From the IMG/VR virus record IMGVR_UViG_3300037312_000757: a stretch of 64,000 bases of DNA; one strand, 5' to 3'. A program made the position numbers and the translations under genes. The notes beneath the pieces are model-generated. The model did not search any database. It had not been told where the DNA came from and saw only the letters and a list, made by a program, of their open reading frames with translations. Below, piece by piece: positions 3,265 to 58,789 of this stretch. How positions within the stretch are numbered: position 1 is the first letter of the stretch; the number at the start of each line of letters is the position of its first letter. The stretch is from a virus (lineage: Duplodnaviria; Heunggongvirae; Uroviricota; Caudoviricetes).

Positions 3265-3551
3265 TACACCACTTCCAGTTCGTATGCTTGACCAAACGAG
3301 TGGTGATCATCGAACAGCTCTTCTTCGCAGCTCACGTGCGGACTGTTGAACTCCACGCTCAGCGATTCCCAGTCACGAGCACGCAAACCAACGGAACGCG
3401 TCCAGTTGACCTTGATTGTGGTTGATGTCGCCGGGTTATTGAACCGCATCGTCAGCTCGTCCACCTGCATGTCGTTGACAATCATGCGGATCATGTTGTA
3501 GAACTTCTGCGCTTCTTGCTTGGACAGGATGCGACCAACTTTCGTGTACAT
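3264..3551 (-). CDS. hypothetical protein
   Basis: Track ORF 3264..3593 trimmed to Met15 (MYTKVG) just downstream of AGGAGG. The first 14 codons are the translated promoter/leader repeat. Confidence 0.55.
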   Translation of the reverse strand: MYTKVGRILSKQEAQKFYNMIRMIVNDMQVDELTMRFNNPATSTTIKVNWTRSVGLRARDWESLSVEFNSPHVSCEEELFDDHHSFGQAYELEVV

Positions 3552-3605
3552 ACGCCCTCCTATTTGTTCACCATATAAACATGGTACGTTCATATGGTGA
3601 ACGAG

Positions 3606-4514
3606 TCAAGCGAGGCTGTCTTTATCAAGACAACCGAACATGCGGAGTGAAGCTTGGCGCATACGCTCACCCAGTACACGGTCATTGAACTTGTAAACGT
3701 TTATACGCATACGGCCGTAGGCGAACGGACCATCATCACCCACCAACAAGTCGACTTCACCTGTCTCTAGAGCTGCTACAGCGTCGTCAACGTCCCAGGA
3801 ATACGTGACCGATCGTTCTTGCTGGAACGGTATACTCTGTAGATGGCCGAGGTCAATGAAGAATTGTGCTTCATCCTTCAAACTCAGAAAGAACGTGGGT
3901 TCACCGTTGAAGTATCGATATACGTTGCCACGTTCGACGACTTCGAGCATGTTTTCACGCACGTATGTTGTACCACCTTCAACTTGGCGGTACTTGTTCA
4001 CACATTGTACACGATACGTGGTGATACGGTCGGAGCTGACATCGTCGTATTCAATGCTTTGCACAATGCCATATTCAAATTCACTGCGTCCACGGAAAGT
4101 GAACTTGATGAAGTCTCGTTCCCAAGCACGCGTAACAGGGAGATCAGCGATGAACGTTCGATTCTCGAGACGGTCGTCTACCACGTCGTGCCCTTCCGTG
4201 TTGCGTTCAGCGCGTGCATCGGAGAGTCGCCGATTGTATTCAGCCTTGTCAGTCATCGAGACTTTCCACATGTTGGGACTCGATGTGGTGCCGTCTTCCC
4301 ATTCGACGATAGCACCTCGGTCGATCTCGTAGATCCCAGGCTTTCGGGCCGAATAGCTGCCAATACGTGGTGAATAATGCAGAACGCGGTTCTTGCCGAC
4401 AATCACACCCTTCGTTCGATCCTTTACGGGGTCGCCTTTTTGCGCGTAATAGTCTTCACCACGATTGAAGATGACTTCGTCACCAACACGCATCACATTT
4501 TCAGTAAACGACAT
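3606..4514 (-). CDS. hypothetical protein (302 aa)
   Basis: Long ORF. RBS GGAGGTG before ATG. No recognised domain. Confidence 0.65.
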   Translation of the reverse strand: MSFTENVMRVGDEVIFNRGEDYYAQKGDPVKDRTKGVIVGKNRVLHYSPRIGSYSARKPGIYEIDRGAIVEWEDGTTSSPNMWKVSMTDKAEYNRRLSDARAERNTEGHDVVDDRLENRTFIADLPVTRAWERDFIKFTFRGRSEFEYGIVQSIEYDDVSSDRITTYRVQCVNKYRQVEGGTTYVRENMLEVVERGNVYRYFNGEPTFFLSLKDEAQFFIDLGHLQSIPFQQERSVTYSWDVDDAVAALETGEVDLLVGDDGPFAYGRMRINVYKFNDRVLGERMRQASLRMFGCLDKDSLA

Positions 4515-4515
4515 T

Positions 4516-4707
4516 TCACCTCCTGAAAGATTGACCGGCTTCGCGCAGCTTGACTTGATCGATGATAGCCGAAAGCTTGAAACCTTCTTCCATCACACGT
4601 CGTGTTTGCTCGTCGTCACGCATCAACCAGATTATGGTTGCGAAAGCCCCTCCTATCTCGATGATGCTGGCACCACCGAGAATGACGGGGAAGAGTAGGC
4701 TATTCAT
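4516..4707 (-). CDS. small membrane protein
   Basis: Start moved to MNSLLFPVILGG (hydrophobic helix) to avoid an ~70-nt overlap with the upstream gene. Weak RBS. Confidence 0.4.
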   Translation of the reverse strand: MNSLLFPVILGGASIIEIGGAFATIIWLMRDDEQTRRVMEEGFKLSAIIDQVKLREAGQSFRR

Positions 4708-4987
4708 AGCTGTATTCGGCCGGATCGACGAAACCAGCTGCGGCAACGAATAGATCATCAGCTTTGGCAAGGCTTTCGATGTGATCTTCCATTTCCAACC
4801 ATTCGAGCATACTCACGCCATCATGCTTGTCCATGGCGTCAATAGCGTGGCCACCGTTGAGGCGGGCGTCGATCTCTGCGCACACAACTTCATACATCGG
4901 ATGCATTTCGTTGGCCTCGATCTTGGCCAGCTCCAGGTCAGTCATCTTCTTGACCGACGTCAGTTGCTGGTAATCGAAATCGACCAT
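4700..4987 (-). CDS. hypothetical acidic protein
   Basis: Trimmed to Met17 (MVDFDYQQ) after GGAGAG. Promoter repeat upstream. Confidence 0.55.
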   Translation of the reverse strand: MVDFDYQQLTSVKKMTDLELAKIEANEMHPMYEVVCAEIDARLNGGHAIDAMDKHDGVSMLEWLEMEDHIESLAKADDLFVAAAGFVDPAEYSYE

Positions 4988-5055
4988 TTCTACTCTCCTT
5001 GAATGTTGTTCGCCACACGCAAATGGTAAGTTCATATGAGGGTGGCGTCAAGCGC

Positions 5056-5364
5056 TCACAGTTGAGTCTTCATCTTTCGCATCATCTGCGCAACGGAAAT
5101 GCATCCAGCTTCGCGCCCGCGTTGATCCACAATTGACATTCTGGCACGATCACCGCGCATTCCCGTACCGAATTCACGACCTCGTTCGGTTGCTTGCTTT
5201 GCAAGTTCCTCCAGAAGAAAGCCGGTAAACTTGCGCAGTTCATCCGTAACCATGATACGTTCACGGACACCCTGCGCCTCACCGTTTGCGTCGATGATGC
5301 CATCGGAGACATCGAAACCTGCTTGGCGGGCCAGTGCGAAAATGTCGATCTTCGTTGCCATCAT
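5056..5364 (-). CDS. hypothetical protein
   Basis: 102 aa. RBS GGAGAAC. Promoter repeat at 5370-5415. Confidence 0.55.
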   Translation of the reverse strand: MMATKIDIFALARQAGFDVSDGIIDANGEAQGVRERIMVTDELRKFTGFLLEELAKQATERGREFGTGMRGDRARMSIVDQRGREAGCISVAQMMRKMKTQL

Positions 5365-5415
5365 GTTCTCCTGTTCATTACCATATTCAAATAGTAAGTT
5401 CAGGTGAACATAACG

Positions 5416-6282
5416 TCAAGTGCCTGAAACAGCAGCGTAGAGGATTTCGATGCAGACGTCTTCAGTTTCGAAGTCAACGTCACGCTCTGGGTTGTATTCA
5501 ACCAACTCAAAACCGACTAACTTGGTTTTGTCCATGACTTCGAATGCCGTAACAACTTCCCACGCATCAAGCCCATTTTCTTCTGGAGAACCAACGCCAG
5601 GAGCTTGCTTCGGGTCAATCGAATCAACATCAAACGTGATACCAAATCCGATTGTGTTCTTTGTAACGATTTCTATTGCCTCGCCCAAGCAATAGAGAAA
5701 ACCTTTCTGTTGTACTTCTTCGATACGCATGACGCGAACACCCATGCTGGCAAGCAATTGTTCCTCGCCTGCTTCGCTGCTACGGGCGCCGATCACCACA
5801 ACGTTTTCTGGCTTGAACTTGGGCAGCGCATCAGCAATGCTAGTCAACTTATCATTGCCCTTACCTAGCAAGTGAGCCAAGGGCATACCATGAGGCGCAC
5901 CACTTTCTGATGTTTCAGGTGTATGGCTGTCCAAGTGTGCATCGATCCAAATCAGGCCGATGTCACCACGATCACGGTAGGTTTTCGCTATCGCACTCCA
6001 GGTACCAATAGCACAAGAATGATCGCCGCCGATCACGACAGGGAATACTTCCCGCTTCATCACTGCATCAACTGCTGATGCCAAGCGTGGCATGTAATCT
6101 TCGACAATAGCCATCTTGGATCCGAGCGACGCATCTGACGTGACCGTTTGGCCTAAGGCGATTGTAAGTTTGTGGGATTGAAGATCTTGAAGACGTTGCT
6201 GCAATGCAGCCGGGCCAGCTTTGCACTGGACAATTCGGGCACCTTCGCCAATCTCGGCGAAGACTACTTCGATATGAGACAT
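5416..6282 (-). CDS. arginase/agmatinase/formiminoglutamase-family ureohydrolase
   Basis: Ureohydrolase signature motifs GGDHS, DAHLD and FDVDSIDP present. Start set at MSHIEVV (GGGAG 5 nt upstream). Confidence 0.8.
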   Translation of the reverse strand: MSHIEVVFAEIGEGARIVQCKAGPAALQQRLQDLQSHKLTIALGQTVTSDASLGSKMAIVEDYMPRLASAVDAVMKREVFPVVIGGDHSCAIGTWSAIAKTYRDRGDIGLIWIDAHLDSHTPETSESGAPHGMPLAHLLGKGNDKLTSIADALPKFKPENVVVIGARSSEAGEEQLLASMGVRVMRIEEVQQKGFLYCLGEAIEIVTKNTIGFGITFDVDSIDPKQAPGVGSPEENGLDAWEVVTAFEVMDKTKLVGFELVEYNPERDVDFETEDVCIEILYAAVSGT

Positions 6283-6308
6283 TAGAACTCCCAGACGATG
6301 TATGGCAA

Positions 6309-7258: not shown

Positions 7259-7332
7259 TTTTGCTTTCTCCTGTTCATCTACCATGCAAGCATGGTACTT
7301 TCATATGGCAACGAGTCAAGTACCAAATGATG

Positions 7333-7379: not shown

Positions 7380-7733
7380 TTACTTTAAGAGAGCAGCCAC
7401 GATCGAACGAACTGTTGCACTGCTGACGCCATTTGCTTGCGCGATCTCGTAAGCAGTCTTATCGTCTATGGCTAGAACTGCTCGACCCGCTGCAAATGCA
7501 CGCTGAAGGCCAGCGAGGTCGAATGATGCACCGTGAGCCTGTTTCACATTGAGACCATACTCGTCAACTAACCAGCCCTCGAACGTAACCGCATTGGCGC
7601 ATTGAGCTTCTTGTTTGATGCGTCCCGTACCTTCGCAAACGAAACACTCTTGATCGGTACCAATATCAGGATCACGAACCATTCGTCCCGTACCGTTACA
7701 AGCAGAGCACACTTCACCAGTGTTTGCAGTCAT
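7380..7733 (-). CDS. DnaJ-type zinc-finger (2x CxxCxGxG) plus C-terminal HTH protein, putative regulator
   Basis: CSACNGTG and CFVCEGTG repeats. C-terminal helix-turn-helix-like TAYEIAQANGVSSATVRSIV. Start at MTANTG after CAGGAGAAC. Confidence 0.55.
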   Translation of the reverse strand: MTANTGEVCSACNGTGRMVRDPDIGTDQECFVCEGTGRIKQEAQCANAVTFEGWLVDEYGLNVKQAHGASFDLAGLQRAFAAGRAVLAIDDKTAYEIAQANGVSSATVRSIVAALLK

Positions 7734-7814
7734 ATTGTTCTCCTGAATGATTACCATGCCTCGCATTGTATATTCATTTGGCTAGACGTCAAGCTTTTTC
7801 ATGAATGAAAAAGC

Positions 7815-9807: not shown

Positions 9808-9929
9808 TGCCTCCTCTAAAATTGGTTAAACATTCAACAAGCCGCATTGTACACCTAAGTAGCCACTTGCAAAGACTGGCTGTTCATTTGTTGTTGCCAC
9901 GCTACAAATGAATCTTCACTTGACTTATG

Positions 9930-13406: not shown

Positions 13407-13452
13407 AGCAGGCTCCAAGGTTAGATTAGGTATGGCTGATGATAGCTTCGCG

Positions 13453-13481
13453 GTTGCCAGTTTGCAAGCACATCTGGCAAC
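13453..13481. promoter_or_regulatory. GTTGCCAG-N13-CTGGCAAC palindromic operator in divergent promoter region
   Basis: Inverted 8-mers between the minus-strand HD-hydrolase gene and the plus-strand gene at 13509. Confidence 0.45.
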
Positions 13482-13508
13482 GTAAATATTGAACTAAAAG
13501 GAGATAAC

Positions 13509-15153: not shown

Positions 15154-15170
15154 CCAGTCTAACAGACTGG
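15154..15170 (-). terminator. intrinsic terminator
   Basis: CCAGTCTgttAGACTGG plus CATTTTTC on the minus strand. Confidence 0.5.
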
Positions 15171-15197
15171 CAACCTTCTGCAACCTAATGTGGCAAC

Positions 15198-15557: not shown

Positions 15558-15633
15558 TGTGCTCTCCTGTGTGTCTACCATGTTCACAGTATGTGTTCAT
15601 TTGAACGCACAGTCAAGCACTAAATGAACATGG

Positions 15634-17888: not shown

Positions 17889-17952
17889 TTGTTCACCCCT
17901 TATTAGTTGCCATGTTCAAATGGTACAACCACCTGAACATGGTAGCAAGACC

Positions 17953-18426: not shown

Positions 18427-18632
18427 CTCGTCCTCTCCTATGTCGTCTACCATATCATTATGGTACGTTCATATGAACCATCTATCAAGGCATTCTTCAG
18501 GAATAATTCATGGAGGTTATTAACTTTATCTAAGGAACACCATGATCCTATAGGCAAAGTATATGGAACCCAGGCAGAACTCTGAAAACATGATGGCACC
18601 CAATGGGTGCCATCATGTCATGTTGATACTGC

Positions 18633-19399: not shown

Positions 19400-19487
19400 G
19401 TTCATCTCCTGTTCATCTACCATGTTTCATATGGTATGTTCAAATGAACAGAAGAGCAAGCGGTATTTTTGCCAGAATGAAAAAAAG

Positions 19488-20741: not shown

Positions 20742-20802
20742 GTTCATTCTCCTTTGTTTACCGTGTTCTTATGGTAATTTCAAATGAACATGATTACAAG
20801 CG

Positions 20803-22405: not shown

Positions 22406-22482
22406 CTGGTCTCGGGTGTGGGATTCGAACTCACGTCACCTGGTCCCAAACCAGGCACACTAACCAGGCTGTGCTAACCCGA
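22406..22482 (-). tRNA. tRNA-Pro (anticodon UGG)
   Basis: Hand-folded cloverleaf: acceptor CTCGGGT/ACCCGAG, D-arm GCAC/GTGT, anticodon stem CCTGG/CCAGG with loop TTTGGGA, T-loop TTCGAAT, encoded CCA. Confidence 0.8.
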
Positions 22483-22611
22483 GATATGTAGTTCCGTGTT
22501 CATGGTTGTATCACAATCGTCTACAGCATACATGAACAGAGTGTCGACCCTCTTGGAACTACGGGGGTGGAAGTTCCGCATCCGCGTAGACTTGGAACTT
22601 CCGATCACTGT

Positions 22612-22623
22612 GGGGGGGGGGGG
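22612..22623. repeat. G12/C12 homopolymer tract inside the tRNA cluster spacer
   Basis: 12 consecutive G on the plus strand between tRNA-Pro and tRNA-Ala, within a highly structured ~165-nt spacer. Confidence 0.7.
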
Positions 22624-22651
22624 CCAGCTTTCGCCAGCGCCCTTAAAATCT

Positions 22652-22727
22652 TGGTGGAGGTAGACGGGATCGAACCGACGACCTTTAGCTTGCAAAGCTA
22701 CTGCTCTCCCAGCTGAGCTATACCCCC
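22652..22727 (-). tRNA. tRNA-Ala (anticodon UGC)
   Basis: GGGGGTATAGCTCAGCTGGGAGAGC... with G3:U70 Ala identity pair, anticodon loop TTTGCAA, T-loop TTCGATC, CCA. Confidence 0.8.
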
Positions 22728-22728
22728 A

Positions 22729-22804
22729 TGGTACATCCTGACGGGATCGAACCGCCGACCTTCGCCTTGTAAGGGCGTTGCTCTACCAGCTGAGCTAAGG
22801 ATGC
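22729..22804 (-). tRNA. tRNA-Val (anticodon UAC)
   Basis: GCATCCTTAGCTCAGCTGGTAGAGC..., anticodon loop CTTACAA, T-loop TTCGATC, CCA. Only 1 nt from tRNA-Ala. Confidence 0.75.
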
Positions 22805-23790: not shown

Positions 23791-23856
23791 CTTGTTCTCC
23801 TGTTAATCACCACAAACCAAGTTTAAGTTCATTTGGCGCAGGAATCAACAGATGAA

Positions 23857-27635: not shown

Positions 27636-27952
27636 GCTTTCGTCGCGAGCAGTTCGAGAGCTTCGGGGTCGAGAACGCAGAGATCGCCGTCCGGGAAATC
27701 GCGGTTTGCGCGGTTCAGCATATGAGCACAGTCACCGCAGTAGAACGCATATGAACCACGGTTCCACCACACAGCGCCAGGTCTCTGGCACGCGGTACGG
27801 TTGCAGCTACCCGCCTTCTTGCCCTTGTCTGCTTTCTTTTCGGGCTCCGTGTGAGCGATCAGCCCACGTGGGCCTGCGTTGGTGAGGAACATACCACGCA
27901 GGCTGGAATTTCGTGCAGACGGGATACCTTGGCGACGCGCCATTGATTTCAT
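27632..27952 (-). CDS. zinc-ribbon protein
   Basis: CNRTAC...CGDCAH four-Cys ribbon. GGAG at the start. Promoter-repeat variant upstream. Confidence 0.5.
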   Translation of the reverse strand: MKSMARRQGIPSARNSSLRGMFLTNAGPRGLIAHTEPEKKADKGKKAGSCNRTACQRPGAVWWNRGSYAFYCGDCAHMLNRANRDFPDGDLCVLDPEALELLATKA

Positions 27953-28013
27953 CTCCTGTTCGTTTACCGTATTCAGATGATATGTTCGTATGAATATGGT
28001 GTAAAGCGAATTT

Positions 28014-28787: not shown

Positions 28788-28862
28788 TCTGTACCTCCTC
28801 ACGTTGTTTACCATAACCAGATGATAAGTTCACATGAATATGGCGTCAAGCGTTTTGTTCAC

Positions 28863-29464: not shown

Positions 29465-29469
29465 TTTGA

Positions 29470-29520
29470 TCTCCGCTGTTTACCATGTTCAAATGATACG
29501 TTCAAATGAACACGGTAGCA
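29470..29520 (-). promoter_or_regulatory. conserved promoter/operator/leader repeat copy
   Basis: tttaccatgttcaaatgatacgttcaaatgaacacggtagcaagcg. Confidence 0.55.
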
Positions 29521-29527
29521 AGCGAAT

Positions 29528-30455: not shown

Positions 30456-30516
30456 CTTTCCTCCTTTGTTTACCATTGCCCAGATGATACGTTCACCTGA
30501 GCAAGGCTGCAACTGA

Positions 30517-30831: not shown

Positions 30832-30905
30832 CTGTTGCTCCTCTGTGTTGTTCACCATGTAAAGATGATAGTTTCATATGAACAAACAGTCAACGTTCAA
30901 ATGAA

Positions 30906-31350: not shown

Positions 31351-31502
31351 TGCGTTTCTCCTTTGCTGTTTACCATGTTCCTATGGTATGTTCATTTGAA
31401 CATGATTACAAGCACCAAATGAATTATTTTTCTGCTTGATGAACATTCATCTGGTATGTTAACCTGAAAGTAGCCAGCTTTTCACCATGATGAGCTCAAA
31501 AG

Positions 31503-33116: not shown

Positions 33117-33223
33117 TTGCTGCTCTCCTGTGTTGTTTACCATGTGTCACATTATGTGTTCATTTGGCTACGTTTGCAAGCACTTGTTGAATTAAATGAA
33201 CAATTATTTTTGTGCATATGAAA

Positions 33224-33824: not shown

Positions 33825-33894
33825 CGGTTCGGGTAAGCCATCGGAACAGCATTGTAGTAATCGAAATTCTTGAGACCCATCTTCATTTCTCCTT

Positions 33895-33945
33895 GAGTTT
33901 GTTTACCATGTTCAAATGGTAAATTCACCTGAAGAATGAATCAAG
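33895..33945 (-). promoter_or_regulatory. conserved early-promoter/operator/leader repeat (consensus copy)
   Basis: Plus-strand tgTTTACCATgttcaaATGGTAAAttcacctgaa...tcaagtg. On the coding strand this reads cTTGAyT-N17-TACCAT then TGAACATGGTAAACA, then GGAGA-N5-8-ATG. One of at least 40 copies (listed in the findings). Confidence 0.6.
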
Positions 33946-34204
33946 TGTTTTTCACTACGTTGTCAGAAAATGTCAGCTTGAACTGCATGGCGATCAACTC
34001 ATCGCGGAATGCATAGACGTTGATCAGATGCACAAAGTCATCACTTTGGCATTGTGCAGCCAGCCATGCCTGAGCCTCGTCCTTAACACGCGGCGCAATG
34101 AGTTGATACTGGAATGGATAATGGCGCCGCAGAAGCGTGGCGCTGTTTTCGTTGGGTTTGCGGGGTTGAGCTTTAACAAAGTCAACCCATTCTAATGGAG
34201 TCAT
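33941..34204 (-). CDS. paralog family A small protein (C-terminal F..LTF motif)
   Basis: 87 aa ending ...DELIAMQFKLTFSDNVVKNT. ATGA-coupled. Confidence 0.5.
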   Translation of the reverse strand: MTPLEWVDFVKAQPRKPNENSATLLRRHYPFQYQLIAPRVKDEAQAWLAAQCQSDDFVHLINVYAFRDELIAMQFKLTFSDNVVKNT

Positions 34205-34518: not shown

Positions 34519-34571
34519 ATCTCTCTCCGTGGTTTACCGTAGCCAGATGATACTTTCACTTGAACCAAGAA

Positions 34572-34880
34572 TCAACACCACGTCAGCTTGAATATAGCAG
34601 CTTCGGACAGGTCTTCAAACACCATCACCATAGCGATATCGGTGAATGCCGGTGAGGTTAGTCGGTGAAATTCACCTTTAACGTTATCAGCCATCCAATC
34701 AAAGAAATAGTCAACAGTTAGGTTCGGGAATGTTTCGTTGCTGATGACTACAAATCCCTGTGGTTTGAATGGCAACGCTTTCAAAATCTTCTCGAAGGTT
34801 TCAAGCTCCCAATCACGTTGGCTGAACATGGTGGGCTTGCAACCGTAAAACTCGTTGAGGGTCTCAGTCAGAGTTTTCAT
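34572..34880 (-). CDS. paralog family A small protein
   Basis: 102 aa ending ...DLSEAAIFKLTWC. TGAATGA junction. Confidence 0.55.
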   Translation of the reverse strand: MKTLTETLNEFYGCKPTMFSQRDWELETFEKILKALPFKPQGFVVISNETFPNLTVDYFFDWMADNVKGEFHRLTSPAFTDIAMVMVFEDLSEAAIFKLTWC

Positions 34881-35460: not shown

Positions 35461-35480
35461 CTGGCAACCTTAGTTGCCAG
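35461..35480. promoter_or_regulatory. CTGGCAAC-ctta-GTTGCCAG perfect palindrome
   Basis: Same 8-mer half-sites as at 13453. Near-copy at 802-828 and single half-sites at 9880-9950, 15170-15200, 15920-15940, 36550-36560, 58845-58915 and 59560-59600. Confidence 0.45.
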
Positions 35481-35487: not shown

Positions 35488-35847
35488 TTAGTGACGCGTG
35501 TTCAGCTTACCCTTCGACATGTCGGAGTAGAAGTGCTTCGTCACGTCGGCCACGAGATTCGGGCACAGCGTCATTTGCATCGCCGGCGAAGCAACCGGGG
35601 TGTACACATCACCACCATCCGTGCGGCCACCGATCTTTTCTGCCCACTTTTCCATCACGGCGCCCAGCTCGCTCAGGAAGCGCGTCTTGAACTTCAGCTT
35701 GCCGTTACGCCGACCCCAGAAGTTGACCAGCTTGCCGTCGATCTTCGCGATGCCCCAGATTTTGTCATTAGAAGCAGCACCGCCTGCGTTGCCACGTGCG
35801 CCTTCGTTGTAGAAGTGACCAAACTTGAGGATTTCGACGTTTGCCAT
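35488..35847 (-). CDS. paralog family B protein (GRRxGKLxFKT core)
   Basis: Start MANVEIL. Shares M.VEI...GH...G.RG..GG.SKD.V.G.A......GRRGG.L.FKT with 39657 and 45470 genes. Conserved 5'-UTR hairpin upstream. Confidence 0.6.
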   Translation of the reverse strand: MANVEILKFGHFYNEGARGNAGGAASNDKIWGIAKIDGKLVNFWGRRNGKLKFKTRFLSELGAVMEKWAEKIGGRTDGGDVYTPVASPAMQMTLCPNLVADVTKHFYSDMSKGKLNTRH

Positions 35848-35880
35848 GTTCATTTCTCCTTAAAGTTGTTGCAGCGTTTT

Positions 35881-35899
35881 GTTTGCTGCGTTGCGTCTA
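35881..35899 (-). promoter_or_regulatory. conserved 5'-UTR hairpin of paralog family B mRNAs
   Basis: GCAGCgttttgtttGCTGC between the promoter repeat and the RBS. Equivalents at 40083-40097 and 46014-46034. Confidence 0.4.
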
Positions 35900-35958
35900 C
35901 CATGTATCACATTCTACATTCATTTGGTAGGCAGTCAACAACTAAATGAACATTTTTG

Positions 35959-36782: not shown

Positions 36783-36842
36783 GTCATGCTCCGGTTGTTA
36801 CCATGTTCAAATGGTAACATCAAATGAAATGCCAATCAAGCA

Positions 36843-37364: not shown

Positions 37365-37467
37365 GCTTGTTCTCCTTGTTGTTTATCATGTTCAAAGAAT
37401 ATAGCCAAATGAAACAACAATCAAGCGGAAAAGCCACCGAAGTGGCTTTCTTTGTTTGCGTTTTCGC

Positions 37468-38025: not shown

Positions 38026-38093
38026 GTTTGCTTCTCCTTTGTTGTTTACCATGTATCAAATGATATGCTCAGGTGAATGTGGTTGCAAGCGCT

Positions 38094-39216: not shown

Positions 39217-39277
39217 CTTGTTCTCCTCGTCGGTTACCATGTTCTTATGGTAACTTCACCTGAACCTGGCTACAAGC

Positions 39278-39538: not shown

Positions 39539-39611
39539 AACGTTTCCTGATCGTCTTAATGTTCACATTGTTGTTTCATATGAACATTAAGTCAAGCAGG
39601 AAGCCAGTTGG

Positions 39612-39656: not shown

Positions 39657-40058
39657 TTATTCCGCTGCGGCAGCCTTCGCCGGCTTCGTCGAACGCGTGT
39701 TCACCTTGCCTTCCTTCTGCGCTGCGGCGAAGCCCTTCGCGACGTCTTCCATGATCGTCGGGCAGGTCTGCTTGATCGCCTTCGCCGACGTGATGTCCAC
39801 GTACTGGATGCCCTTCACGTCCTTGCCTTCGAGCTTCAGCGCGAACAGTTCGAGAGCTGCGTCGAGCTCCGTGCGCTTCTCGGTCTTGAAGCGCAGCTTG
39901 CCACCACGGCGACCGTAGAACTTGACGAGGCGCTGTCCCTTGCCTGCGCCGATGTAAGCCAGACCCCAGACGCTGTCCTTCGACGGCTTGCCGCCCTTCT
40001 CGCCGCGTTCGCCATCGACCAGTGCGTGTCCCAGACGGATGATTTCGACTTGTGCCAT
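39657..40058 (-). CDS. paralog family B protein
   Basis: MAQVEIIRLGHALVDGERG...GRRGGKLRFKT. RBS GGAGAAG. 5'-UTR hairpin GCTGCgttttGCAGC. Confidence 0.6.
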   Translation of the reverse strand: MAQVEIIRLGHALVDGERGEKGGKPSKDSVWGLAYIGAGKGQRLVKFYGRRGGKLRFKTEKRTELDAALELFALKLEGKDVKGIQYVDITSAKAIKQTCPTIMEDVAKGFAAAQKEGKVNTRSTKPAKAAAAE

Positions 40059-40183
40059 TGTTCACTTCTCCTTTAAAAGTTAGCTGCGTTTTGCAGCAGT
40101 ACCTACCATGTGTCAAATGATAGGATCACCTAATTACCACGTCAACACCTTTTTCAGAAAATTTTTGACTTTTTGAACGAGGT

Positions 40184-41673: not shown

Positions 41674-41733
41674 TATTATTCTCCCGCACAAAGGTTATTG
41701 GACTTCAGATGATACGTTCATATGAACATACAG

Positions 41734-42006
41734 TCAACCCCAAGTCAGCAACCACAACATTGCTTCATTTTCGTCTTCGAAGTAGATAGCAGGTGGGATA
41801 AAGTCAACACCAGGGTTTGTGCCTACCTGCTTCTTTATTTGTTCGTGCCGCCAATCAGGACATACTGCGTAAAAGTGAAGATGATGGTCGGTCAACAATA
41901 CTGATGATGGCTTGAACAGGACATTGCCCATGTTGCGCGACATCCAATTCTGCACTCGGTTTTCACCATACATCTCGATGAAGTCAGGGAACGAAACCAG
42001 CTTCAT
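41734..42006 (-). CDS. paralog family A small protein
   Basis: 90 aa ending ...ENEAMLWLLTWG. Confidence 0.5.
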   Translation of the reverse strand: MKLVSFPDFIEMYGENRVQNWMSRNMGNVLFKPSSVLLTDHHLHFYAVCPDWRHEQIKKQVGTNPGVDFIPPAIYFEDENEAMLWLLTWG

Positions 42007-42253: not shown

Positions 42254-42259
42254 CTCGTT

Positions 42260-42305
42260 CTCCTGTCGTTACCATGTTCATATGGTAAGTTCAAATGAAC
42301 AATCA
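42260..42305 (-). promoter_or_regulatory. conserved promoter/operator/leader repeat copy
   Basis: ttaccatgttcatatggtaagttcaaatgaacaatcagtcaagcgc. Confidence 0.55.
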
Positions 42306-42602
42306 GTCAAGCGCAAGATAGAATTGCATAGCATCAGAATGATTCTGGAAATACGCAAAACCAAGTCCGTCCAATGCATACTGCTGAATGCCTTGGTTCT
42401 TCAGAATTTTTTCGTAAACACTGGGCGCTTCAATAGCAGACGCGACAACGAATTCAATCGTTATCTTGTTTTGGCGCTCCAATCGTCCTATGTCAATGCG
42501 GCGTTTTTTGCGCGTCTCGCGTGATGCACGCTGCTTCAGAAAATTGCCCTTGAAGTCGTACTCGACGCCGACAAAATCTTCAACGGTAAAGAGCTCAGCC
42601 AT
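42303..42602 (-). CDS. paralog family A-like small protein
   Basis: 99 aa ending ...HSDAMQFYLALD. Confidence 0.5.
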   Translation of the reverse strand: MAELFTVEDFVGVEYDFKGNFLKQRASRETRKKRRIDIGRLERQNKITIEFVVASAIEAPSVYEKILKNQGIQQYALDGLGFAYFQNHSDAMQFYLALD

Positions 42603-45071: not shown

Positions 45072-45193
45072 GTACTGCTCCTTAAAAGTGATGAGATAGT
45101 TTTCGAGTCCCATCAACGCCACCTTTAAGGCTTACTGCAACTTCCTTTACTGCTAAGCCATATTGTATATATGGCTCATACTACAGTCAAGCA

Positions 45194-45409
45194 CTACTCG
45201 CTAGGGCAATCGGCATAAGGTGCCAAATCAATTCGAATCTTGCCGTTTGTTGCCACTACATGTTCGTAGACCTCTCCACTTTGCGTGAATTTCCGCAAGC
45301 GTTCAGGATAGAACTCGGGTATTCTTGCGCATAGCCATTCGGTAGCCGCCACGCAACCCATCCTACGTCTTTTCGACCCCCATTCTTCAATGGCTGCATC
45401 TAAAGTCAT
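45194..45409 (-). CDS. hypothetical small protein
   Basis: 71 aa. RBS GGAG. Confidence 0.45.
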   Translation of the reverse strand: MTLDAAIEEWGSKRRRMGCVAATEWLCARIPEFYPERLRKFTQSGEVYEHVVATNGKIRIDLAPYADCPSE

Positions 45410-45469: not shown

Positions 45470-45976
45470 TTACGCTGCCAGCTTTGCTGCTTGCGCTGCC
45501 GCGATCGAAGCTTGCGTCGGGAACGCGAACACCTTCTTCGGGTCCGGAGCCTTGTACTTCGGAGCCTTCGGGGCCTTTGCTGCCTTTGCTTCGGCGCCCT
45601 TCGCCGTTTCACGCGTGTTCAGCTTCTTGTTCGTCGATGCCTTGTGGAACATCTTGCCAAGCGTGTCTGCGAAGTCTGCACCCAGCACTTCGTCGCGTGC
45701 TGCTGCGTCGAGATCCTTGTACGCGAAGCCCTTGTCCTTGCCCGTCAGCTTCACGTCCGTGTAGAACGCGAGGACCTTGTCCATGTCTGCCTTCTTGTAC
45801 GTCTTGAAGCGCAGCATGCCACCGCGACGACCACCGAACGTTGCCAGCGTCGTCACCACGCCGAAGTTGATCAGCGCAATACCAAACACGCTGTCCTTCG
45901 ACGGTGCGCCACCGTTGTCACCACGCTTGCCAGCAACCAGTGCGTGACCAACACGAACGATTTCGATCTTTGCCAT
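45470..45976 (-). CDS. paralog family B protein with AKAPKAPKYKAPDPKK histone-like tail
   Basis: MAKIEIVRVGHALVAGKRG...GRRGGMLRFKT. 5'-UTR hairpin GCAGCGctttgtcttCGCTGC. Confidence 0.6.
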   Translation of the reverse strand: MAKIEIVRVGHALVAGKRGDNGGAPSKDSVFGIALINFGVVTTLATFGGRRGGMLRFKTYKKADMDKVLAFYTDVKLTGKDKGFAYKDLDAAARDEVLGADFADTLGKMFHKASTNKKLNTRETAKGAEAKAAKAPKAPKYKAPDPKKVFAFPTQASIAAAQAAKLAA

Positions 45977-46142
45977 GTTCATTTCTCCTTAAAGTTGTTT
46001 ACCAGTTTTGTTTGCAGCGCTTTGTCTTCGCTGCGTCGTCTACCATGTCGCTATATTATGTTCATCTGAAACTTGAATCAACAGCTAAATGAACAAATTT
46101 TCAACTTTTTTCATCTGTTGTGGCAACACAACATGGTTCAAA

Positions 46143-47413: not shown

Positions 47414-47483
47414 GTTCTCCTGTTCATCTACCATGTTCCTATAGTAGTTTCATATGAAACACGAATCAAGCACAGAATGAACG

Positions 47484-48264: not shown

Positions 48265-48327
48265 CTTGCGCTCCTTTGTTTACCGTATTCATATGGTACA
48301 TTCACATGAAGCATGAATCAAGTGTGC

Positions 48328-49213: not shown

Positions 49214-49286
49214 CGCTTTCTCCTTCAAGTTGTTTACCATGTTCAAATGATAAGGTCAAATGAACATGGTGTCAACTCCTTTTTAC

Positions 49287-49535: not shown

Positions 49536-49624
49536 ATTTCTCCTAGCCAATAATGGTGGCATTATTTTTGGCTTCAGCATATTGACCATAATTTTTCATA
49601 TGGTATGTTAGCCTGGCTGGCGAA

Positions 49625-50065
49625 TCAAGATACTTTCTTCTTGCGTTGCTGCCGTTCTTTTTCCGTATCAGTCAGCAGTATTGCCAGCTTGAACGGATCA
49701 CGTTCGGCCAAAGCAATGAATTCCGAAGTACGCAACATCTGGCCCGACACATACACGCGGTTTTGTGCGCCGCGTGGGTTGTTGCCTTCGTATTTCTCCC
49801 AGATGAACTGAGGGTAGTTGACATCCCCTGCGATGACAACAAACCGCATTTGACGCAGTTGTTGATCGTCAGGTTGACGCGGGCACGCGCTCATGAGCGT
49901 GAGCTCGATGCCGTGAAGCCCTAGCACCTCTTTGAGCTTTTGGTAGTTGTTGAGTTGCTGCTTGAAGTTGAAGCGTTCCGGGTGGCCGAAGAAATGGCCC
50001 TTCGGAACCATGATTGAGCGGCGTCCGCCGATAGGCAAACGGTCGGGGAACGTGTTCTCACGCAT
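49625..50065 (-). CDS. hypothetical protein, paralog family C
   Basis: Start MRENTFPD after AAGGAG. ...FIWEKYEGNN...RVYVSGQML...KLAILLT. Confidence 0.55.
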   Translation of the reverse strand: MRENTFPDRLPIGGRRSIMVPKGHFFGHPERFNFKQQLNNYQKLKEVLGLHGIELTLMSACPRQPDDQQLRQMRFVVIAGDVNYPQFIWEKYEGNNPRGAQNRVYVSGQMLRTSEFIALAERDPFKLAILLTDTEKERQQRKKKVS

Positions 50066-51729: not shown

Positions 51730-51759
51730 CCAGTATGGCAACAAGCGCGATTTGCCAGC

Positions 51760-51912
51760 TTATTGCTCAGCCGTTTCCTTTGATTCTGCCTGAAGCTGCT
51801 TTAGCGCGATTTTGCGGAAGAAACCCTCGAGGTCTTGCCGGCGCATTGCTTCGTAATATTGATTGCGCAGCTCTCGGATTCGTTCGTTCACTTCGGTGTA
51901 ATGCAGTGCCAT
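51760..51912 (-). CDS. hypothetical small protein (50 aa)
   Basis: Start MALHYTEV after CAGGAGAAC. Confidence 0.45.
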   Translation of the reverse strand: MALHYTEVNERIRELRNQYYEAMRRQDLEGFFRKIALKQLQAESKETAEQ

Positions 51913-52800: not shown

Positions 52801-53230
52801 TGTCGATCCACAATTTGAATTTCACGATATCCATTTGTGGGTGATCGCCGAATTCGACTCTAAGTGCAGCCAGAACTTGGAGATCGATATAACCGCCGTT
52901 TCGTTTCAGGAAGTGGTTGAGGAGGAATGATAATCGTTCGTGATCTTTTACGCATTCAATTGCAAACCGTTCTTGAGCTGCTTTGGTAGCTTCGTTCAAT
53001 TGAATTCGTTCATTCACTATTGTTTGTTCTTCATTTGCTTTATCCCAGCCGCTATACCACAGTTCCTTAGCTTCTTTTTCGAAGGTTTGTTTAGCTAGTC
53101 TAGTGTAAAACAGGCGTTGTGAAAGTGTGAAGGAGAAGCCTGTTTTGTAGGGATTTTGTTCACGAAGTTGGTTATTTTCACGTGCTTGATGCCCTTGGTT
53201 GAAGAATGTTGCTCGTTGTTCTTGTTTCAT
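52754..53230 (-). CDS. hypothetical protein (AT-rich module)
   Basis: 158 aa. RBS GAGGTGA. ATGA-coupled. Confidence 0.55.
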   Translation of the reverse strand: MKQEQRATFFNQGHQARENNQLREQNPYKTGFSFTLSQRLFYTRLAKQTFEKEAKELWYSGWDKANEEQTIVNERIQLNEATKAAQERFAIECVKDHERLSFLLNHFLKRNGGYIDLQVLAALRVEFGDHPQMDIVKFKLWIDNEIAKQTNQERKTAP

Positions 53231-53541
53231 TCATCACCTCGTGTGTAGCCGCGCGAAATCAACCATTGTTGCACTTCATGTAGATGAAAGATGGGGCCTG
53301 AACGGAGGTCTGCTATGGGCTTGGGGAAGTTGATGTCACGTGCCCTCCAGTTGCTAACAGCTTGACGGGAGGTGTGACACAATTCGGAGATTTCCGCGAT
53401 GCCAACCAGGGTTTGTTCACCGATCTTTTGGTTGAATGCCTCCTCCAGGTCGCGGTAGTCCTGGAACTTTACATACTCACCAATTCTGCTTTCATCCATC
53501 TCATAAGCGCGATACATGGATGGATTGTATCTTTTAACCAT
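53227..53541 (-). CDS. AlpA/excisionase-like (MerR-superfamily) HTH DNA-binding protein
   Basis: VGIAEISELCHTSRQAVSNWRARDINFPKPIADL...VQQWL resembles AlpA-type phage regulators. Start MVKRYNP after AAAGG. Confidence 0.5.
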   Translation of the reverse strand: MVKRYNPSMYRAYEMDESRIGEYVKFQDYRDLEEAFNQKIGEQTLVGIAEISELCHTSRQAVSNWRARDINFPKPIADLRSGPIFHLHEVQQWLISRGYTRGDE

Positions 53542-53869
53542 ATTTGCCTTTGGCGTCATTATAAGACGGCGTGGCGCTTACCATGAGCGACCATACGTTC
53601 CGCGTATATGCCGTGATATGAGACGCTTGAGCGGCCATCTGGCCAGTGGCAACAACAGGCATGAGTTTATAGCCGTTGAAGATTGAACCGTTCATCAAGT
53701 CACGAGCGAAGCTGAGCGACAATGTTGCTTCGAGGTACTTGCATCGTTCCTCTAGTGCTTTATAGTCGCTCAGCTTCACAAATTTGCCGTCACTATCATT
53801 TATCATGACGGCATACGTCATCTTGAATGTGGTTTCGACCCGCAGTGCAGGCGAGTAACGGTGAACCAT
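53534..53869 (-). CDS. hypothetical protein
   Basis: Trimmed to MVHRYSP after GAGGG. Confidence 0.45.
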   Translation of the reverse strand: MVHRYSPALRVETTFKMTYAVMINDSDGKFVKLSDYKALEERCKYLEATLSLSFARDLMNGSIFNGYKLMPVVATGQMAAQASHITAYTRNVWSLMVSATPSYNDAKGKYG

Positions 53870-54768: not shown

Positions 54769-54818
54769 TTTCTGCTCCTGTTCTGTACCATTGCCGTTAT
54801 GGTACATTCATATGAATA

Positions 54819-55247
54819 TTAGAGCAAGCCGGTCAGCAGATTAAAACCTGTTGATTGACTGAAGGTGGCAGCTATGTACATAGCTGCGCCGCGAATTGGC
54901 TTAACAATGCGTTCTTCACAATGGCCATCCGAATACAGACGATCATCGCCATCTTTCTTGAACATCATCGAGCAGAACGGCAGATATTTCATACCCCATC
55001 CACCATACTTTTCTTTGTAGTCTTCCATGTCAAACACAACGGTCCATCGCGGACCAACTGGTTTGCCATATTTGTTCAACTCACGGAATTGATCACCCTT
55101 TTGCAGGTGCTTGAGCTGGACTCGTTCCGCTCGGTTGACATCTTTCCACCACATCATCTCGCGTGGTGTATAGCGCCAAGGAATGTTTAAGAGCTTGCGC
55201 TCTTTCGAGGACAAGCTCTTGGGTTTGCAACTTTGCTCGAGCAGCAA
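54819..55247 (-). CDS. hypothetical protein (start uncertain, TTG)
   Basis: 142-aa ORF with TAATTG junction to the small upstream ORF. Confidence 0.5.
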   Translation of the reverse strand: MLLEQSCKPKSLSSKERKLLNIPWRYTPREMMWWKDVNRAERVQLKHLQKGDQFRELNKYGKPVGPRWTVVFDMEDYKEKYGGWGMKYLPFCSMMFKKDGDDRLYSDGHCEERIVKPIRGAAMYIAATFSQSTGFNLLTGLL

Positions 55248-55358: not shown

Positions 55359-55374
55359 TTCTGTTACTCCGTTG

Positions 55375-55430
55375 TGTTGTTTACCATGTATCAAATGATA
55401 CGTTCACTTGAACATGGTTGCAAGCACTTT
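55375..55430 (-). promoter_or_regulatory. conserved promoter/operator/leader repeat copy
   Basis: tttaccatgtatcaaatgatacgttcacttgaacatggttgcaagcac. Confidence 0.55.
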
Positions 55431-55865: not shown

Positions 55866-55925
55866 GCCATCTCCTGTTGTTTACCATGCTCACATGATAC
55901 GCTCATATGAGCGCAGTATCAAGCA

Positions 55926-56198: not shown

Positions 56199-56210
56199 GA
56201 TTGATCCTCC

Positions 56211-56474: not shown

Positions 56475-56483
56475 ACCACCTCC

Positions 56484-56804: not shown

Positions 56805-56896
56805 TTTGCGCTCCGTAACGTTTACCATGTTCATATGGTAAATTCACCTAGTGCCTTTTGCAAGCGCTAGGTGAACATGGTTACAAACTTTGTTGC

Positions 56897-57466
56897 TTAG
56901 TCGGCGTCGAACGACGATACGAACACGCGTTGCCCGACCAAGCGCTCCAGCTCGTAGCTGGCCTTGATATTTTCCGGAAAGCGCTCGCGTCGGAAGCTGA
57001 TGGTGAAGTTGTAACCAGTGCCGAACCCCGACGGGAAGTAGCAGTACGTTTCACCGCGCTTGAGCTTGTCCACCATCGCTTGCTTTGCTTCGTCGGTCAT
57101 GAACAGCGCAACAGGTCCCAGGTCAACGCGTTGGCTCTTCACCAGCACCGCTTGACGTTCCTTCGCGCGTTCAACTTGCTCAGCAAACTGCTCGGGCAGC
57201 TTTGCAAGCGTTTCGTAATAGAAGCTGTCTTCGACGCCGAGACGATTGAACGTGAACGTGCGACCATGCGCCTTGTAGTTGGTTGTACACATGGGACTGG
57301 TGCTGTCTCCGAAGAACTCGAGCAGGATTTCGACACCGTCGTTCACCGGGAGCTCCATCTTCAGCGTGGTATTCTTGTTACCTTGCGTTCGCGTTACAGT
57401 GCCTTGCAGGATCTTTGCGAACGCTTCCATCTTCTTCTGGATGCTGTCGATGTTTGCCTTTGCCAT
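56897..57466 (-). CDS. hypothetical protein
   Basis: Trimmed to MAKANIDS after the leader. Confidence 0.6.
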   Translation of the reverse strand: MAKANIDSIQKKMEAFAKILQGTVTRTQGNKNTTLKMELPVNDGVEILLEFFGDSTSPMCTTNYKAHGRTFTFNRLGVEDSFYYETLAKLPEQFAEQVERAKERQAVLVKSQRVDLGPVALFMTDEAKQAMVDKLKRGETYCYFPSGFGTGYNFTISFRRERFPENIKASYELERLVGQRVFVSSFDAD

Positions 57467-57553
57467 CTCAACTTCTCCTGTGTTGTTCACCATGTCGTTA
57501 TTCTGCGTTCATATGAACAAACAGTCAAGCACCAAATGAACGAAAAGTTGAAG

Positions 57554-57580
57554 AAAAAGCCCGCATTGTGCGGGCTTTTT
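57554..57580. terminator. bidirectional intrinsic terminator
   Basis: AAAAAGCCCGCattgtGCGGGCTTTTT. Confidence 0.6.
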
Positions 57581-57598
57581 ACTGCGTTGCGTTGCTGC

Positions 57599-57928
57599 TT
57601 ACTTGAACACCCAGATCGGATGTGCCGTGTGCAGACCTTGGTTGTTCTCGTGCGACACGATCTTGCCACCCTGGATGTTGATGACGTTCACGATCTCGAC
57701 ACGCGACATCATTTTGCGCGTTTGGTCGTGAATCGCGTAATGCACTTTGCCGATCACGAAATCGTCGCCCAGAGGGCCACAGCTTGAGAGGAACACCAGC
57801 TTATCGTCGTTTTTGCGCGCGACGTAGACCGTGCAACGATCCCAAATTTCGCTGAAACGGTTAACGCGTACTGCACGCAAGTTGAACAGCGATTGCGTTG
57901 CGGGAAGCAGTGCGAGGTTTTGTCCCAT
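57599..57928 (-). CDS. hypothetical protein
   Basis: Trimmed to MGQNLALL after AAGGAGAG. Confidence 0.55.
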   Translation of the reverse strand: MGQNLALLPATQSLFNLRAVRVNRFSEIWDRCTVYVARKNDDKLVFLSSCGPLGDDFVIGKVHYAIHDQTRKMMSRVEIVNVINIQGGKIVSHENNQGLHTAHPIWVFK

Positions 57929-57993
57929 GTCTAACTCTCCTTGTTGTCTACCATGTTTCAAATGATACATTCATTTGGCAGAAAATCAAGCGA

Positions 57994-58182
57994 TTATTCG
58001 TCGCTCGGGAGAATCAAAGCATCCAGCACCATGCGGCGGCGCGACTGTTCGACCAACGTTTTGATGTCCACACGCGGAAGGCCCCTCACATCAGTCATCG
58101 GAAGAGATTCAGGCAGACGTACTTCAACAACTTCCCAGCCAGCTTGCTGTGCGATTTGCTTCATGATGGCCGACTTAGTCAT
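57994..58182 (-). CDS. hypothetical small protein
   Basis: Start MTKSAIMKQ after ACGGAG. Confidence 0.45.
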   Translation of the reverse strand: MTKSAIMKQIAQQAGWEVVEVRLPESLPMTDVRGLPRVDIKTLVEQSRRRMVLDALILPSDE

Positions 58183-58234
58183 GTTCATCTCCGTTGTTTA
58201 CCCAAGCCAGATGGTACATTCATCTGGCTAGGTA

Positions 58235-58789
58235 TCAAGCTTTTTTCGTTCGCGTTTTCGTGATGACAAACTGGAAGTAGCTTGATTGCTGATCAATCGA
58301 TTTGCCATTTACGATGGGATACTTCGTGTCCCATTCGTACTTCACCTTCTTGGGATTCCGCGCATATGGATCCTGGTACATGTCGAGTCGATGATAGTGA
58401 CCTAGACTGCGCCACGTGCGTACTGCCATTTCACCAATACAGGTGCTGCTGTGGATCTTTTTCAACACGTGAGCGGCGCCGAGATAGAGAACTGTTCCGA
58501 GCCCACGTCCACGGTAGCCGCGCTTCAGATAGACTGCGTACACCCCGTAACCGATCTTGCGCTCTTTTTTCTTGTTGAGCGATATGATACCGACGATCTG
58601 CTTGTCGCGATTACGCTGCAAATAAACGTATTGACTCCAGCGCGTACCTTTGTCCAGGTGAAAGAGCGTCAGTCCGTCTTTTGTGCCGAGATTAGTGGCT
58701 TCGTTGCCGTTTGCTACGGCTTCTTTAATTTCGTCCTTGAGATTGTTGAAGCCCCACAGGTCGTAATTTTCGCCTTTTGTAATGTACAT
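58235..58789 (-). CDS. GNAT-family N-acetyltransferase
   Basis: Motif A ...GVYAVYLKRGYRGRGLGTVL... Start set at MYITKG. The track N-terminus is low-complexity. Confidence 0.55.
   Translation of the reverse strand: MYITKGENYDLWGFNNLKDEIKEAVANGNEATNLGTKDGLTLFHLDKGTRWSQYVYLQRNRDKQIVGIISLNKKKERKIGYGVYAVYLKRGYRGRGLGTVLYLGAAHVLKKIHSSTCIGEMAVRTWRSLGHYHRLDMYQDPYARNPKKVKYEWDTKYPIVNGKSIDQQSSYFQFVITKTRTKKA

Follow-up and report, generated by a model that had tools for sequence, protein, structure and literature searches.

A repeated promoter–leader cassette in the gaps of a one-strand gene block from an uncultivated giant-phage lineage

Why would a phage set almost the same sequence of some 55 bp in front of one small gene after another? 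The question is raised by the virus record IMGVR_UViG_3300037312_000757 (Caudoviricetes), of which we analysed a stretch of 64,000 nt (hereafter the window), and in which a preliminary description had listed at least 40 copies of a promoter, operator or leader repeat upstream of minus-strand genes. Our scan finds 41 cassettes that, at one per one to three small genes, occupy the gaps of a 55-kb one-strand block consisting mostly of orphan genes. On balance, it seems probable that these are host-type promoter–leader cassettes, which would both drive expression of a hyperplastic block of early genes and serve as linkers in recombination. The host RNA polymerase holoenzyme would use them immediately after infection, while the copies, because they are near-identical, would act as portable linkers through which related phages acquire, lose and transfer promoter-plus-gene modules.

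Copies, placement and anatomy

Copies were counted with an iterated position-weight matrix (PWM), seeded with the core given in the preliminary description and run over both strands with a cut-off of 12 bits. All 41 cassettes above this cut-off lie on the minus strand (Table 1), the three plus-strand matches being palindromic echoes of the same loci, against a chance expectation of 0.05 matches on average and one at most (first-order Markov simulations). Pattern searches agree: TTTACCAT-N6-ATGGTAAA with up to two mismatches is matched 10 times (0 in 100 shuffles), TAYCATNTGAAYAYGGTAAAC six times (0 in shuffles) and a further exact pattern three times (0), while 22 of the 23 exact occurrences of TTCANNTGAA in the window fall within cassettes. 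Perfect forms of TTTACCAT-N6-ATGGTAAA are limited to two sites, 33902 and 56821. The abundance first reported holds up, since 40 of the 41 PWM sites were already on the earlier list; the copy at 23825 is an addition, and the listed site at 45130 corresponds to a degenerate copy (TTGACT-N17-TACAAT, 45190–45162) that the PWM missed.

None of the copies lies within a called gene: all sit in intergenic gaps, and the gene upstream usually terminates 15–40 nt before the -10. The motif is thus neither as frequent within genes as between them nor as frequent on one strand as on the other, and the placement described at the outset stands. The genes served are small orphans of the kind typical of early regions.

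On the coding strand, the cassette reads gc-TTGAyt, a 17-nt spacer, TAyCAT, nTGAAC, ATGGTAAACAAC, aGGAGa, 5–8 nt and ATG, its downstream half being compactly written as TAyCAT followed by nTGAAC-ATGGTAAACAA, GGAG and ATG. In the window, 33 copies have a spacer of 17 nt between -35 and -10 and five have one of 16 nt; counted from where the -10 begins, the start codon, preceded by a Shine–Dalgarno (SD) sequence, mostly follows after 32–42 nt (57–76 nt in four copies). Information content was computed on 163 distinct copies, those of the window together with those of its relatives (see below). In the -35, TTG is kept at 93–98%, with A or C as fourth base (1.6–1.9 bits); in the -10, A2 (99%) and T6 (98%) reach 1.9 bits each; TTG and TA..AT together span 1.3–1.9 bits. 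Family-wide, the -10 takes the form TATCAT in 63% of copies and TACCAT in 29%. The sigma70-like pair proposed earlier is thereby recovered in the sequence, with a TTGACA-like hexamer, a spacer of 17 ± 1 bp and the A2 and T6 of the -10 all present, and so is the conserved leader that continues into GGAG-ATG.

Conservation extends well beyond the hexamers. The spacer contains a box, tCA-nR-TGAa (about -23 to -15), whose conservation matches that of both hexamers (1.4–1.8 bits) and is higher in its right half than in its left. This conservation is position-specific, because the flanking spacer positions vary freely in the same copies. Outside cassettes, TCANRTGAA is depleted (3 occurrences vs. 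10.2 ± 3.5 expected). Downstream, TGAAC recurs 13 bp after the box, and the initially transcribed ATGGTAAAC is conserved. The leader, A/C-rich (AUGGUAAACAAC...) and 22–30 nt long, carries ATGGTAAACAA at 0.5–1.05 bits, a value free of selection bias because the leader columns were left out of the scanning matrix, and a weak A/T bias appears at -52 to -40 (TTCATTTA, 0.15–0.34 bits).

Transcription is predicted to start at the A of ATGGTA, about 7 nt after the -10. The ATG of this same ATGGTA is in frame with the real start in 14 of 34 copies, which is close to chance; we therefore reject it as a real or leaderless start, and the N-termini MVNN.../MVDEQE in the six-frame translations are spurious, as had been suspected. 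Readings as sigma32, extracytoplasmic function (ECF) or MotA-box promoters were discarded too, for their spacings do not fit.

Relatives and the shuffling of cassettes

Relatives were found by pattern scans of IMG/VR and of metagenome contigs, and their loci are designated by L-numbers. The same cassette occurs in four IMG/VR contigs (424,529 bp, 290,322 bp, 87 kb and 113 kb) and in many metagenome contigs, one of them of 223,660 bp. The search of related phage genomes, which had been suggested as a check, thus recovers the element at 2–16 copies per locus, on one strand within each locus (single exception: L109). Judged by its tail sheath, the 424-kb relative stands closest, among cultured phages, to PaBG (47% amino-acid identity) and Lu11 (37%). 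Nucleotide BLAST with the window and with the cassette consensus gave no match among cultured phages, positions 1–50 kb of PaBG contain no cassette copy, and the bacterial genomes scanned for the cassette in search of a host yielded chance-like single matches only. The source of the window is probably a phage of more than 500 kb, about 0.5 Mb, because a protein identical over 96 amino acids to the product of open reading frame (ORF) 53227–53559 is recorded on a contig of 523,837 bp; a 71%-identical homologue lies on another of 523,572 bp.

Homologous genes of the window and its relatives are about 68–76% identical in DNA, and shared proteins 30–75% identical. Across this divergence, every lineage retains both hexamers and the spacer box, the latter at 88–98% in all of them (per-lineage consensus), while the leader ATGGTAAAC is weak or absent in the most diverged ones, those of the 87/113-kb and 424-kb contigs. 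Gene order is broadly colinear, with cassette-flanked ORFans replaced or moved. L184 has 14 cassettes and only two genes shared with the window, L160 has 11 and a single shared gene, L002 shows a permuted gene order, and in both L151 and L186 the homologue of the window gene 57599–57970 lies between the homologues of those at 39278 and 38740. As these relatives are only about 70% identical, exact indel breakpoints lie beyond resolution.

Such mobility lends itself to another explanation, in which only the promoter and the ribosome-binding site are functional and the boxes, together with the dyad described below, are frozen accidents of a master copy recently spread by duplication, recombination or gene conversion. 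The cassettes clearly travel with genes, the strongly palindromic copies (about 10 of 41) resemble a subfamily, and the leader motif is lost or changed in the 87/113-kb and 424-kb contigs. However, a passive passenger hardly accounts for a box preserved in all lineages despite the low identity of the proteins, for the variation of the flanking spacer positions in the very same copies, or for the depletion of the box outside cassettes; we judge this explanation very unlikely.

The closest known concept is that of the PeSLs (promoter-early stem-loops), the mobile regulatory cassettes of T4-type phages (Arbiol et al. 2010, PMC2839356; Comeau et al. 2014, PMC4122927). As in PeSLs, a promoter that is sigma70-like (here by its sequence) runs into the SD and start codon, tens of copies occupy intergenic gaps in hyperplastic regions rich in ORFans, and the element is conserved while the genes in between are inserted, deleted, replaced and displaced. 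The strict definition does not apply, however, since the defining GC-rich terminator stem-loop upstream of the promoter is found at only about 8–10 of the 41 copies (mean upstream minimum free energy -15.6 vs. -14.5 in random windows), and we rejected such a terminator as part of the element for being confined to this minority. What further sets the present cassettes apart from PeSLs is an invariant box in the spacer, a transcribed leader that is conserved, and a dyad lying over spacer, -10 and start site; nor is their lineage T4-type, its nearest cultured phages being PaBG and Lu11 and its only T4-like trace a sub-threshold Pfam match to gp23.

The early promoters of T4 and T5 comprise dozens of strong host-type promoters with conservation outside the hexamers, in upstream A/T-rich and initially transcribed regions. 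The present family likewise extends its conservation beyond both hexamers, but we know of no T4 or T5 early promoters with a near-invariant palindromic spacer box or with a dyad embracing the -10. Conserved early-promoter families and PeSL-type cassettes are thus already known, whereas the lineage (uncultivated jumbo phages or megaphages), the near-invariant box and the dyad embracing the -10 and the start site are new. If our reading is true, genome evolution through mobile regulatory cassettes, so far described in T4-type phages only, also operates in a distinct line of uncultivated giant phages that reach about 0.5 Mb. In addition, a single 45-nt profile serves as a marker that recovers the variable, presumably early regions of these phages from metagenomes, and a defined set of more than 160 natural promoter variants is available to probe the invariant box and the promoter-embracing dyad.

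The dyad over the -10 and the candidate factors

The preliminary description had seen in the core a perfect palindrome, TACCAT-N6-ATGGTA, and a smaller one, TTCAnnTGAA. As a unit, the former does not survive: at all six pairs, complementary counts equal the independent-column expectation (e.g., 131 vs. 131.7; Fisher p 0.16–1.0), and both perfect copies fold weakly (z -1.0 and -0.8). We therefore rejected the TACCAT/ATGGTA hairpin for want of covariation, TACCAT being the minority form of the -10. The core is instead a single dyad of 33–37 nt, CCATGTTCAtaTGA [AcgTA] yCATaTGAACATGG, whose 14 pairs flank a 5-nt centre located immediately 5' of the -10. The palindromes described earlier, TTCAnnTGAA and a second CAtnTGAAC included, appear to be largely facets of this longer dyad. 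Similarly, tandem CAnnTGAA operators 13 bp apart are a real pattern, but one that we set aside as mostly a by-product of the dyad and of the self-complementary CATATG core.

A rival reading gives the dyad a role as RNA. Because few terminators separate the units, read-through transcripts would contain the whole dyad (CCAUGUUCAuaUGA-AcgUA-yCAUaUGAACAUGG), which might fold into a hairpin, either to be cut by a double-strand RNase or to protect the upstream 3' end. Monocistronic mRNAs would result, with 5' ends like those of primary transcripts, the promoter and the hairpin being overlaid to save space. In the register i+j=-2, 68.4% of the cells are paired (65.0 ± 0.5 in shuffles), 121 changes are double-sided (81.5 ± 6.9) and the covariation score amounts to 0.209 (0.162), none of 500 shuffles reaching these values, while slid registers are only 27–48% paired. 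The pairs (-13,11) and (-12,10) exceed the permutation expectation (p ≤ 0.0005), with nothing comparable in neighbouring registers. Compensated arm variants occur in different phages (AGCCAR/YTGGCT, GCTCA/TGAGC, ACTTAG/TTGAGT, AATCAA/TTGATT). Spacer position -7 is a purine in 87% of copies and pairs, as A-U or G.U, with the T that invariably closes the -10; A.C mismatches are depleted there, whereas G.U persists. Finally, folding is more stable for the sense than for the antisense strand (-9.1 vs. -8.2 kcal/mol, p 3.5e-4), and strong folds, of -13 to -21.5 kcal/mol, are seen in about 10 of the 41 copies in the window (z -4.8 to -6.5 against dinucleotide shuffles in the five strong folders for which these were run). 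Altogether, the support for pairing across copies is moderate.

Other results fit a hairpin poorly. The remaining three quarters or so of the window copies fold no better than shuffles, a mean of 9.5 of the 14 pairs is formed per copy, RNAalifold returned no consensus structure for the pooled cassettes, and an Rfam scan of the window matched three tRNAs only and no cassette. Conservation is far stronger in the inner left arm than in its partner, so that the constraint on sequence dominates over pairing. One measure, that of pairs with a change on both sides, does not rise above shuffles, and related copies can inflate the scores. Copies behind terminators tend towards weaker hairpins than the others, but not significantly so (p 0.2–0.3). 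With 14–15 bp at most, i.e., less than about two helical turns of duplex, the stem is short for RNase III and differs in this from the RNase III hairpins of T7 early RNA; it is also unlike the hairpin promoter of the N4 virion RNA polymerase (stem of 5–7 bp, 3-nt loop, no hexamers), for it combines 14 bp and a 5-nt loop with canonical hexamers. A hairpin role for the core seems, on this evidence, unlikely.

Returning to the cassette as a host-type promoter, its additional conserved elements could be explained by a protein. With lower confidence than for the promoter and linker roles, we suggest that the spacer box, the TGAAC 13 bp downstream and ATGGTAAAC would dock one trans-acting phage factor that controls all the promoters at once. 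A shut-off repressor would be its simplest form, because the sites lie under the footprint of the polymerase, and a single factor over about 40 promoters would put the early programme of a megaphage under one master switch. Among phage repressors, repeated operator sets are known from mycobacteriophage L5 (stoperators), P1 (C1 operators) and phiC31 (conserved inverted repeats). The likeness lies in a short site repeated tens of times in a fixed orientation, which would let one protein control many units; the difference is that the site here always occupies one fixed position within a promoter. We know, however, of no cognate repressor in the cassette phages and of no sign that they are temperate.

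Several observations weigh against this reading as a whole or against its factor. Pfam detects no DNA-binding domain at E ≤ 1e-3 in 125 window proteins (no HTH or RHH), which leaves the proposed factor with no candidate gene among them. TTCAnnTGAA does not behave as the simple symmetric operator proposed at first: its half-sites TCA/TGA are symmetric, but its centre is strand-biased (AA 34/TT 18, GG 20/CC 2, AG 13/CT 0), which is atypical for the site of a symmetric dimer. The extra conservation coincides in part with the compensating dyad, and this points to nucleic-acid pairing rather than to recognition by a protein. In addition, a box-less promoter of the same flavour (TTGCAA-N17-TATCAT) is present at 13470, so that the box is not needed for a promoter to be there. 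The promoter assignment itself, and with it the polymerase, start site and timing, is a reading of the sequence, and the driver could conceivably be a sigma factor of the phage.

The latter alternative would make the cassettes promoters for a phage-encoded sigma70-family factor, with the box and TGAAC/ATGGTA as extended recognition and with genes that are middle rather than early. Both PaBG and Lu11, the nearest cultured relatives, encode such a factor (PMC7412058; Lu11 gp174), and the metagenome that yielded the 87-kb and 113-kb cassette contigs also contains a contig with a 48%-identical homologue, which the pattern method did not find on the contigs of 424 kb and 290 kb. A -10 that is consistently TAyCAT and not TATAAT, and conservation far beyond the hexamers, point the same way as the sigma genes of the relatives. 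Yet TTGACx-N17-TAxxAT is the canonical housekeeping architecture, the small orphans served suit early expression, and Pfam detects no sigma domain among the 125 window proteins. In Lu11, host-like TTGACA(N15-17)TATAAT sites are annotated as early promoters, apart from a distinct middle/late motif that is unlike the cassette (aaaaCTGTAAAT-N5-GTA, no -35). A resemblance of TGAACATGGTA to this motif in the form CTGTAAAT-N5-GTA was dismissed as superficial, CTGTAAAT not being enriched in the window. A phage sigma factor thus seems to us quite unlikely as the driver.

A different role for the box is suggested by positional analogy with the Q/AlpA-type loading promoters (lambda PR', P. aeruginosa PalpB), in which the element of the factor lies between -35 and -10, and of which PalpB has an nAnnnT "-10-like" element, CACGAT, at -1 to +5 (PMC9371919). 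The cassettes have a conserved box in that interval, and CATGGT stands at the same predicted -1 to +5 (A 81%, T 64%), albeit with low information content. Every cassette would then also serve to load a phage factor onto the host RNA polymerase, which this factor would accompany or reprogram: the factor would read the asymmetric box while sigma re-binds nAnnnT, and only polymerases starting at cassettes would become processive or resistant to terminators or Rho. Unlike Q/AlpA systems, which consist of single promoters followed by a terminator, the window has more than 40 promoters and few terminators, and a Pfam search restricted to 125 window proteins detected neither a Q-like nor a P. aeruginosa AlpA-like protein; a loading role is, in our view, highly improbable.

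Two genes had been put forward as the regulator, and nothing ties either of them to the box. The product of 7380–7733 matches a DnaJ zinc finger at E 1.3e-3, below the Pfam cut-off. That of 53227–53559 matches a PHROG excisionase/regulator family at E 3.7e-4, has no Pfam match and reaches E 1.3 with an AlpA-family entry of the PDB; two of its homologues are labelled "AlpA" by JGI. PDB searches for a regulator fold gave insignificant matches only.

A second motif, CTGGCAAC/GTTGCCAG, occurs exactly 11 times (2.9 expected; 0 of 100 shuffles), often in inverted or direct pairs, in intergenic regions that have no main cassette, both divergent regions included, and may be a second operator. One occurrence, at 13453–13460, falls within the spacer of a TTGCAA-N17-TATCAT promoter; the presence of CTGGCAAC in the spacer of a promoter without the box hints that spacer boxes could be interchangeable control sites. 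This promoter (13420–13508, gtgcTTGCAA-N17-TATCAT), which lacks the leader motif as well, heads an operon of larger transport and metabolic genes, from 13406 down to 7862.

Individual copies and neighbouring genes

Table 1. Cassette copies and second-motif sites in the window, the cassettes above the PWM cut-off being ordered by score. Folding energies are in kcal/mol and z-scores refer to shuffled sequences.
Feature	Position	Strand	-10 at	PWM (bits)	Remarks
cassette, best consensus match	29468..29523	-	29498	55.9	fold -17.3, z -5.7
cassette	42257..42312	-	42287	54.1	
cassette	33891..33946	-	33921	52.4	perfect TTTACCAT-N6-ATGGTAAA; weak fold, z -1.0
cassette	31358..31413	-	31388	51.6	gene 30955-31350: 74%-identical homologue behind L184 cassette
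cassette	49222..49277	-	49252	50.7	fold -17, z -5.4
cassette	28796..28851	-	28826	50.3	gene 28419-28814 follows cassette in window, L002 and L085
cassette	48268..48323	-	48298	49.6	
cassette	20746..20801	-	20776	47.6	
cassette	27952..28007	-	27982	47.3	-35 is TTTACA
cassette	55869..55924	-	55899	47.2	compensated GCTCA/TGAGC arms
cassette	55370..55425	-	55400	46.2	14/14 dyad pairs; fold -16.4, z -4.8
cassette	47416..47471	-	47446	44.7	terminator-like stem-loop upstream
cassette	39222..39277	-	39252	44.6	
cassette	3556..3611	-	3586	44.1	
cassette	34522..34577	-	34552	43.2	
cassette	18435..18490	-	18465	43.2	
cassette	19406..19461	-	19436	42.8	terminator-like stem-loop and T-run upstream
cassette	30840..30895	-	30870	42.2	terminator 30932-30907 directly upstream
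cassette	15563..15618	-	15593	42.1	
cassette	5366..5421	-	5396	41.8	
cassette	17895..17950	-	17925	41.4	14/14 dyad pairs; fold -21.5, z -6.5
cassette	57475..57530	-	57505	40.9	terminator-like stem-loop directly upstream
cassette	36786..36841	-	36816	40.9	
cassette	30459..30514	-	30489	40.2	13/14 dyad pairs; fold -20.8
cassette	56810..56865	-	56840	39.2	perfect TTTACCAT-N6-ATGGTAAA; weak fold, z -0.8
cassette	54774..54829	-	54804	37.4	heads operon with AlpA-like ORF 53227-53559
cassette	4998..5053	-	5028	36.4	
cassette, long leader	46028..46083	-	46058	36.2	76-nt leader with GCAGC/GCTGC hairpin; no dyad fold
cassette	41684..41739	-	41714	36.1	without leader motif
cassette	39542..39597	-	39572	35.9	outer arms compensated, TAAT/ATTA
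cassette	38035..38090	-	38065	35.0	
cassette	37371..37426	-	37401	34.9	terminator-like stem-loop upstream
cassette	33126..33181	-	33156	32.1	
cassette	57937..57992	-	57967	27.9	gene 57599-57928
cassette	58186..58241	-	58216	25.8	16-nt spacer; compensated AGCCAG/CTGGCT; fold -20, z -5.1
cassette, long leader	40092..40147	-	40122	25.2	leader hairpin as at 46058 and 35916
cassette, weak	23795..23850	-	23825	23.5	
cassette	7267..7322	-	7297	22.6	16-nt spacer carrying GTTGCCAT
cassette, weak	49575..49630	-	49605	22.1	without spacer box or leader motif
cassette	7740..7795	-	7770	20.3	16-nt spacer; terminator upstream; precedes zinc-finger ORF 7380-7733
cassette, long leader	35886..35941	-	35916	12.7	16-nt spacer; leader hairpin
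degenerate copy	45140..45195	-			TTGACT-N17-TACAAT, 45190-45162; from consensus promoter scan; below PWM cut-off
degenerate copy, uncertain	58810..58865	-			TTGACG 58859-58854, 16-nt spacer, TATCAT 58837-58832; box reduced to CCATATG; no leader motif; upstream of GNAT ORF
second motif CTGGCAAC/GTTGCCAG	35461-35480, 13453-13481, 15167-15197, 58896-58921, 805-830, 51735-51760, 9893-9900				

Three paralogous genes (45470–45982, 39657–40058 and 35488–35853; N-termini MNMAxxEIxxxGH, 36% identity) share an unusually long leader, in which a GCAGC-aaaac-GCTGC hairpin is conserved between the cassette and the SD; the same arrangement is found in L151 and L186.

Part of the cargo of the block is unusual for a phage (136–2619, 5416–6342, 7862–8791, 42663–44404, 50120–50899 and others). 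It includes TerD, vWA-TerF-like and TerC/DUF475 proteins, an arginase-family enzyme, a TAXI/NMT1-like solute-binding protein, a CoaE fusion adjoining a cytidylyltransferase, and a radical SAM enzyme, while further matches, to SmpB, AdoMet decarboxylase, RNA ligase 1 and Lar, are attributed to the block as a whole rather than to specific ORFs. Three tRNA genes (Pro-TGG, Ala-TGC and Val-TAC; 22407–22804, minus strand) lie within the block, with no cassette directly upstream. Beyond it, two overlapping plus-strand ORFs span 60279–61464, one with a sub-threshold match to the T4 major capsid protein gp23 (Pfam E 3e-4, PHROG E 1e-3) while for the other no cultured phage gives a match. The transition from the minus-strand block to these plus-strand genes is conserved in L154 and L189.

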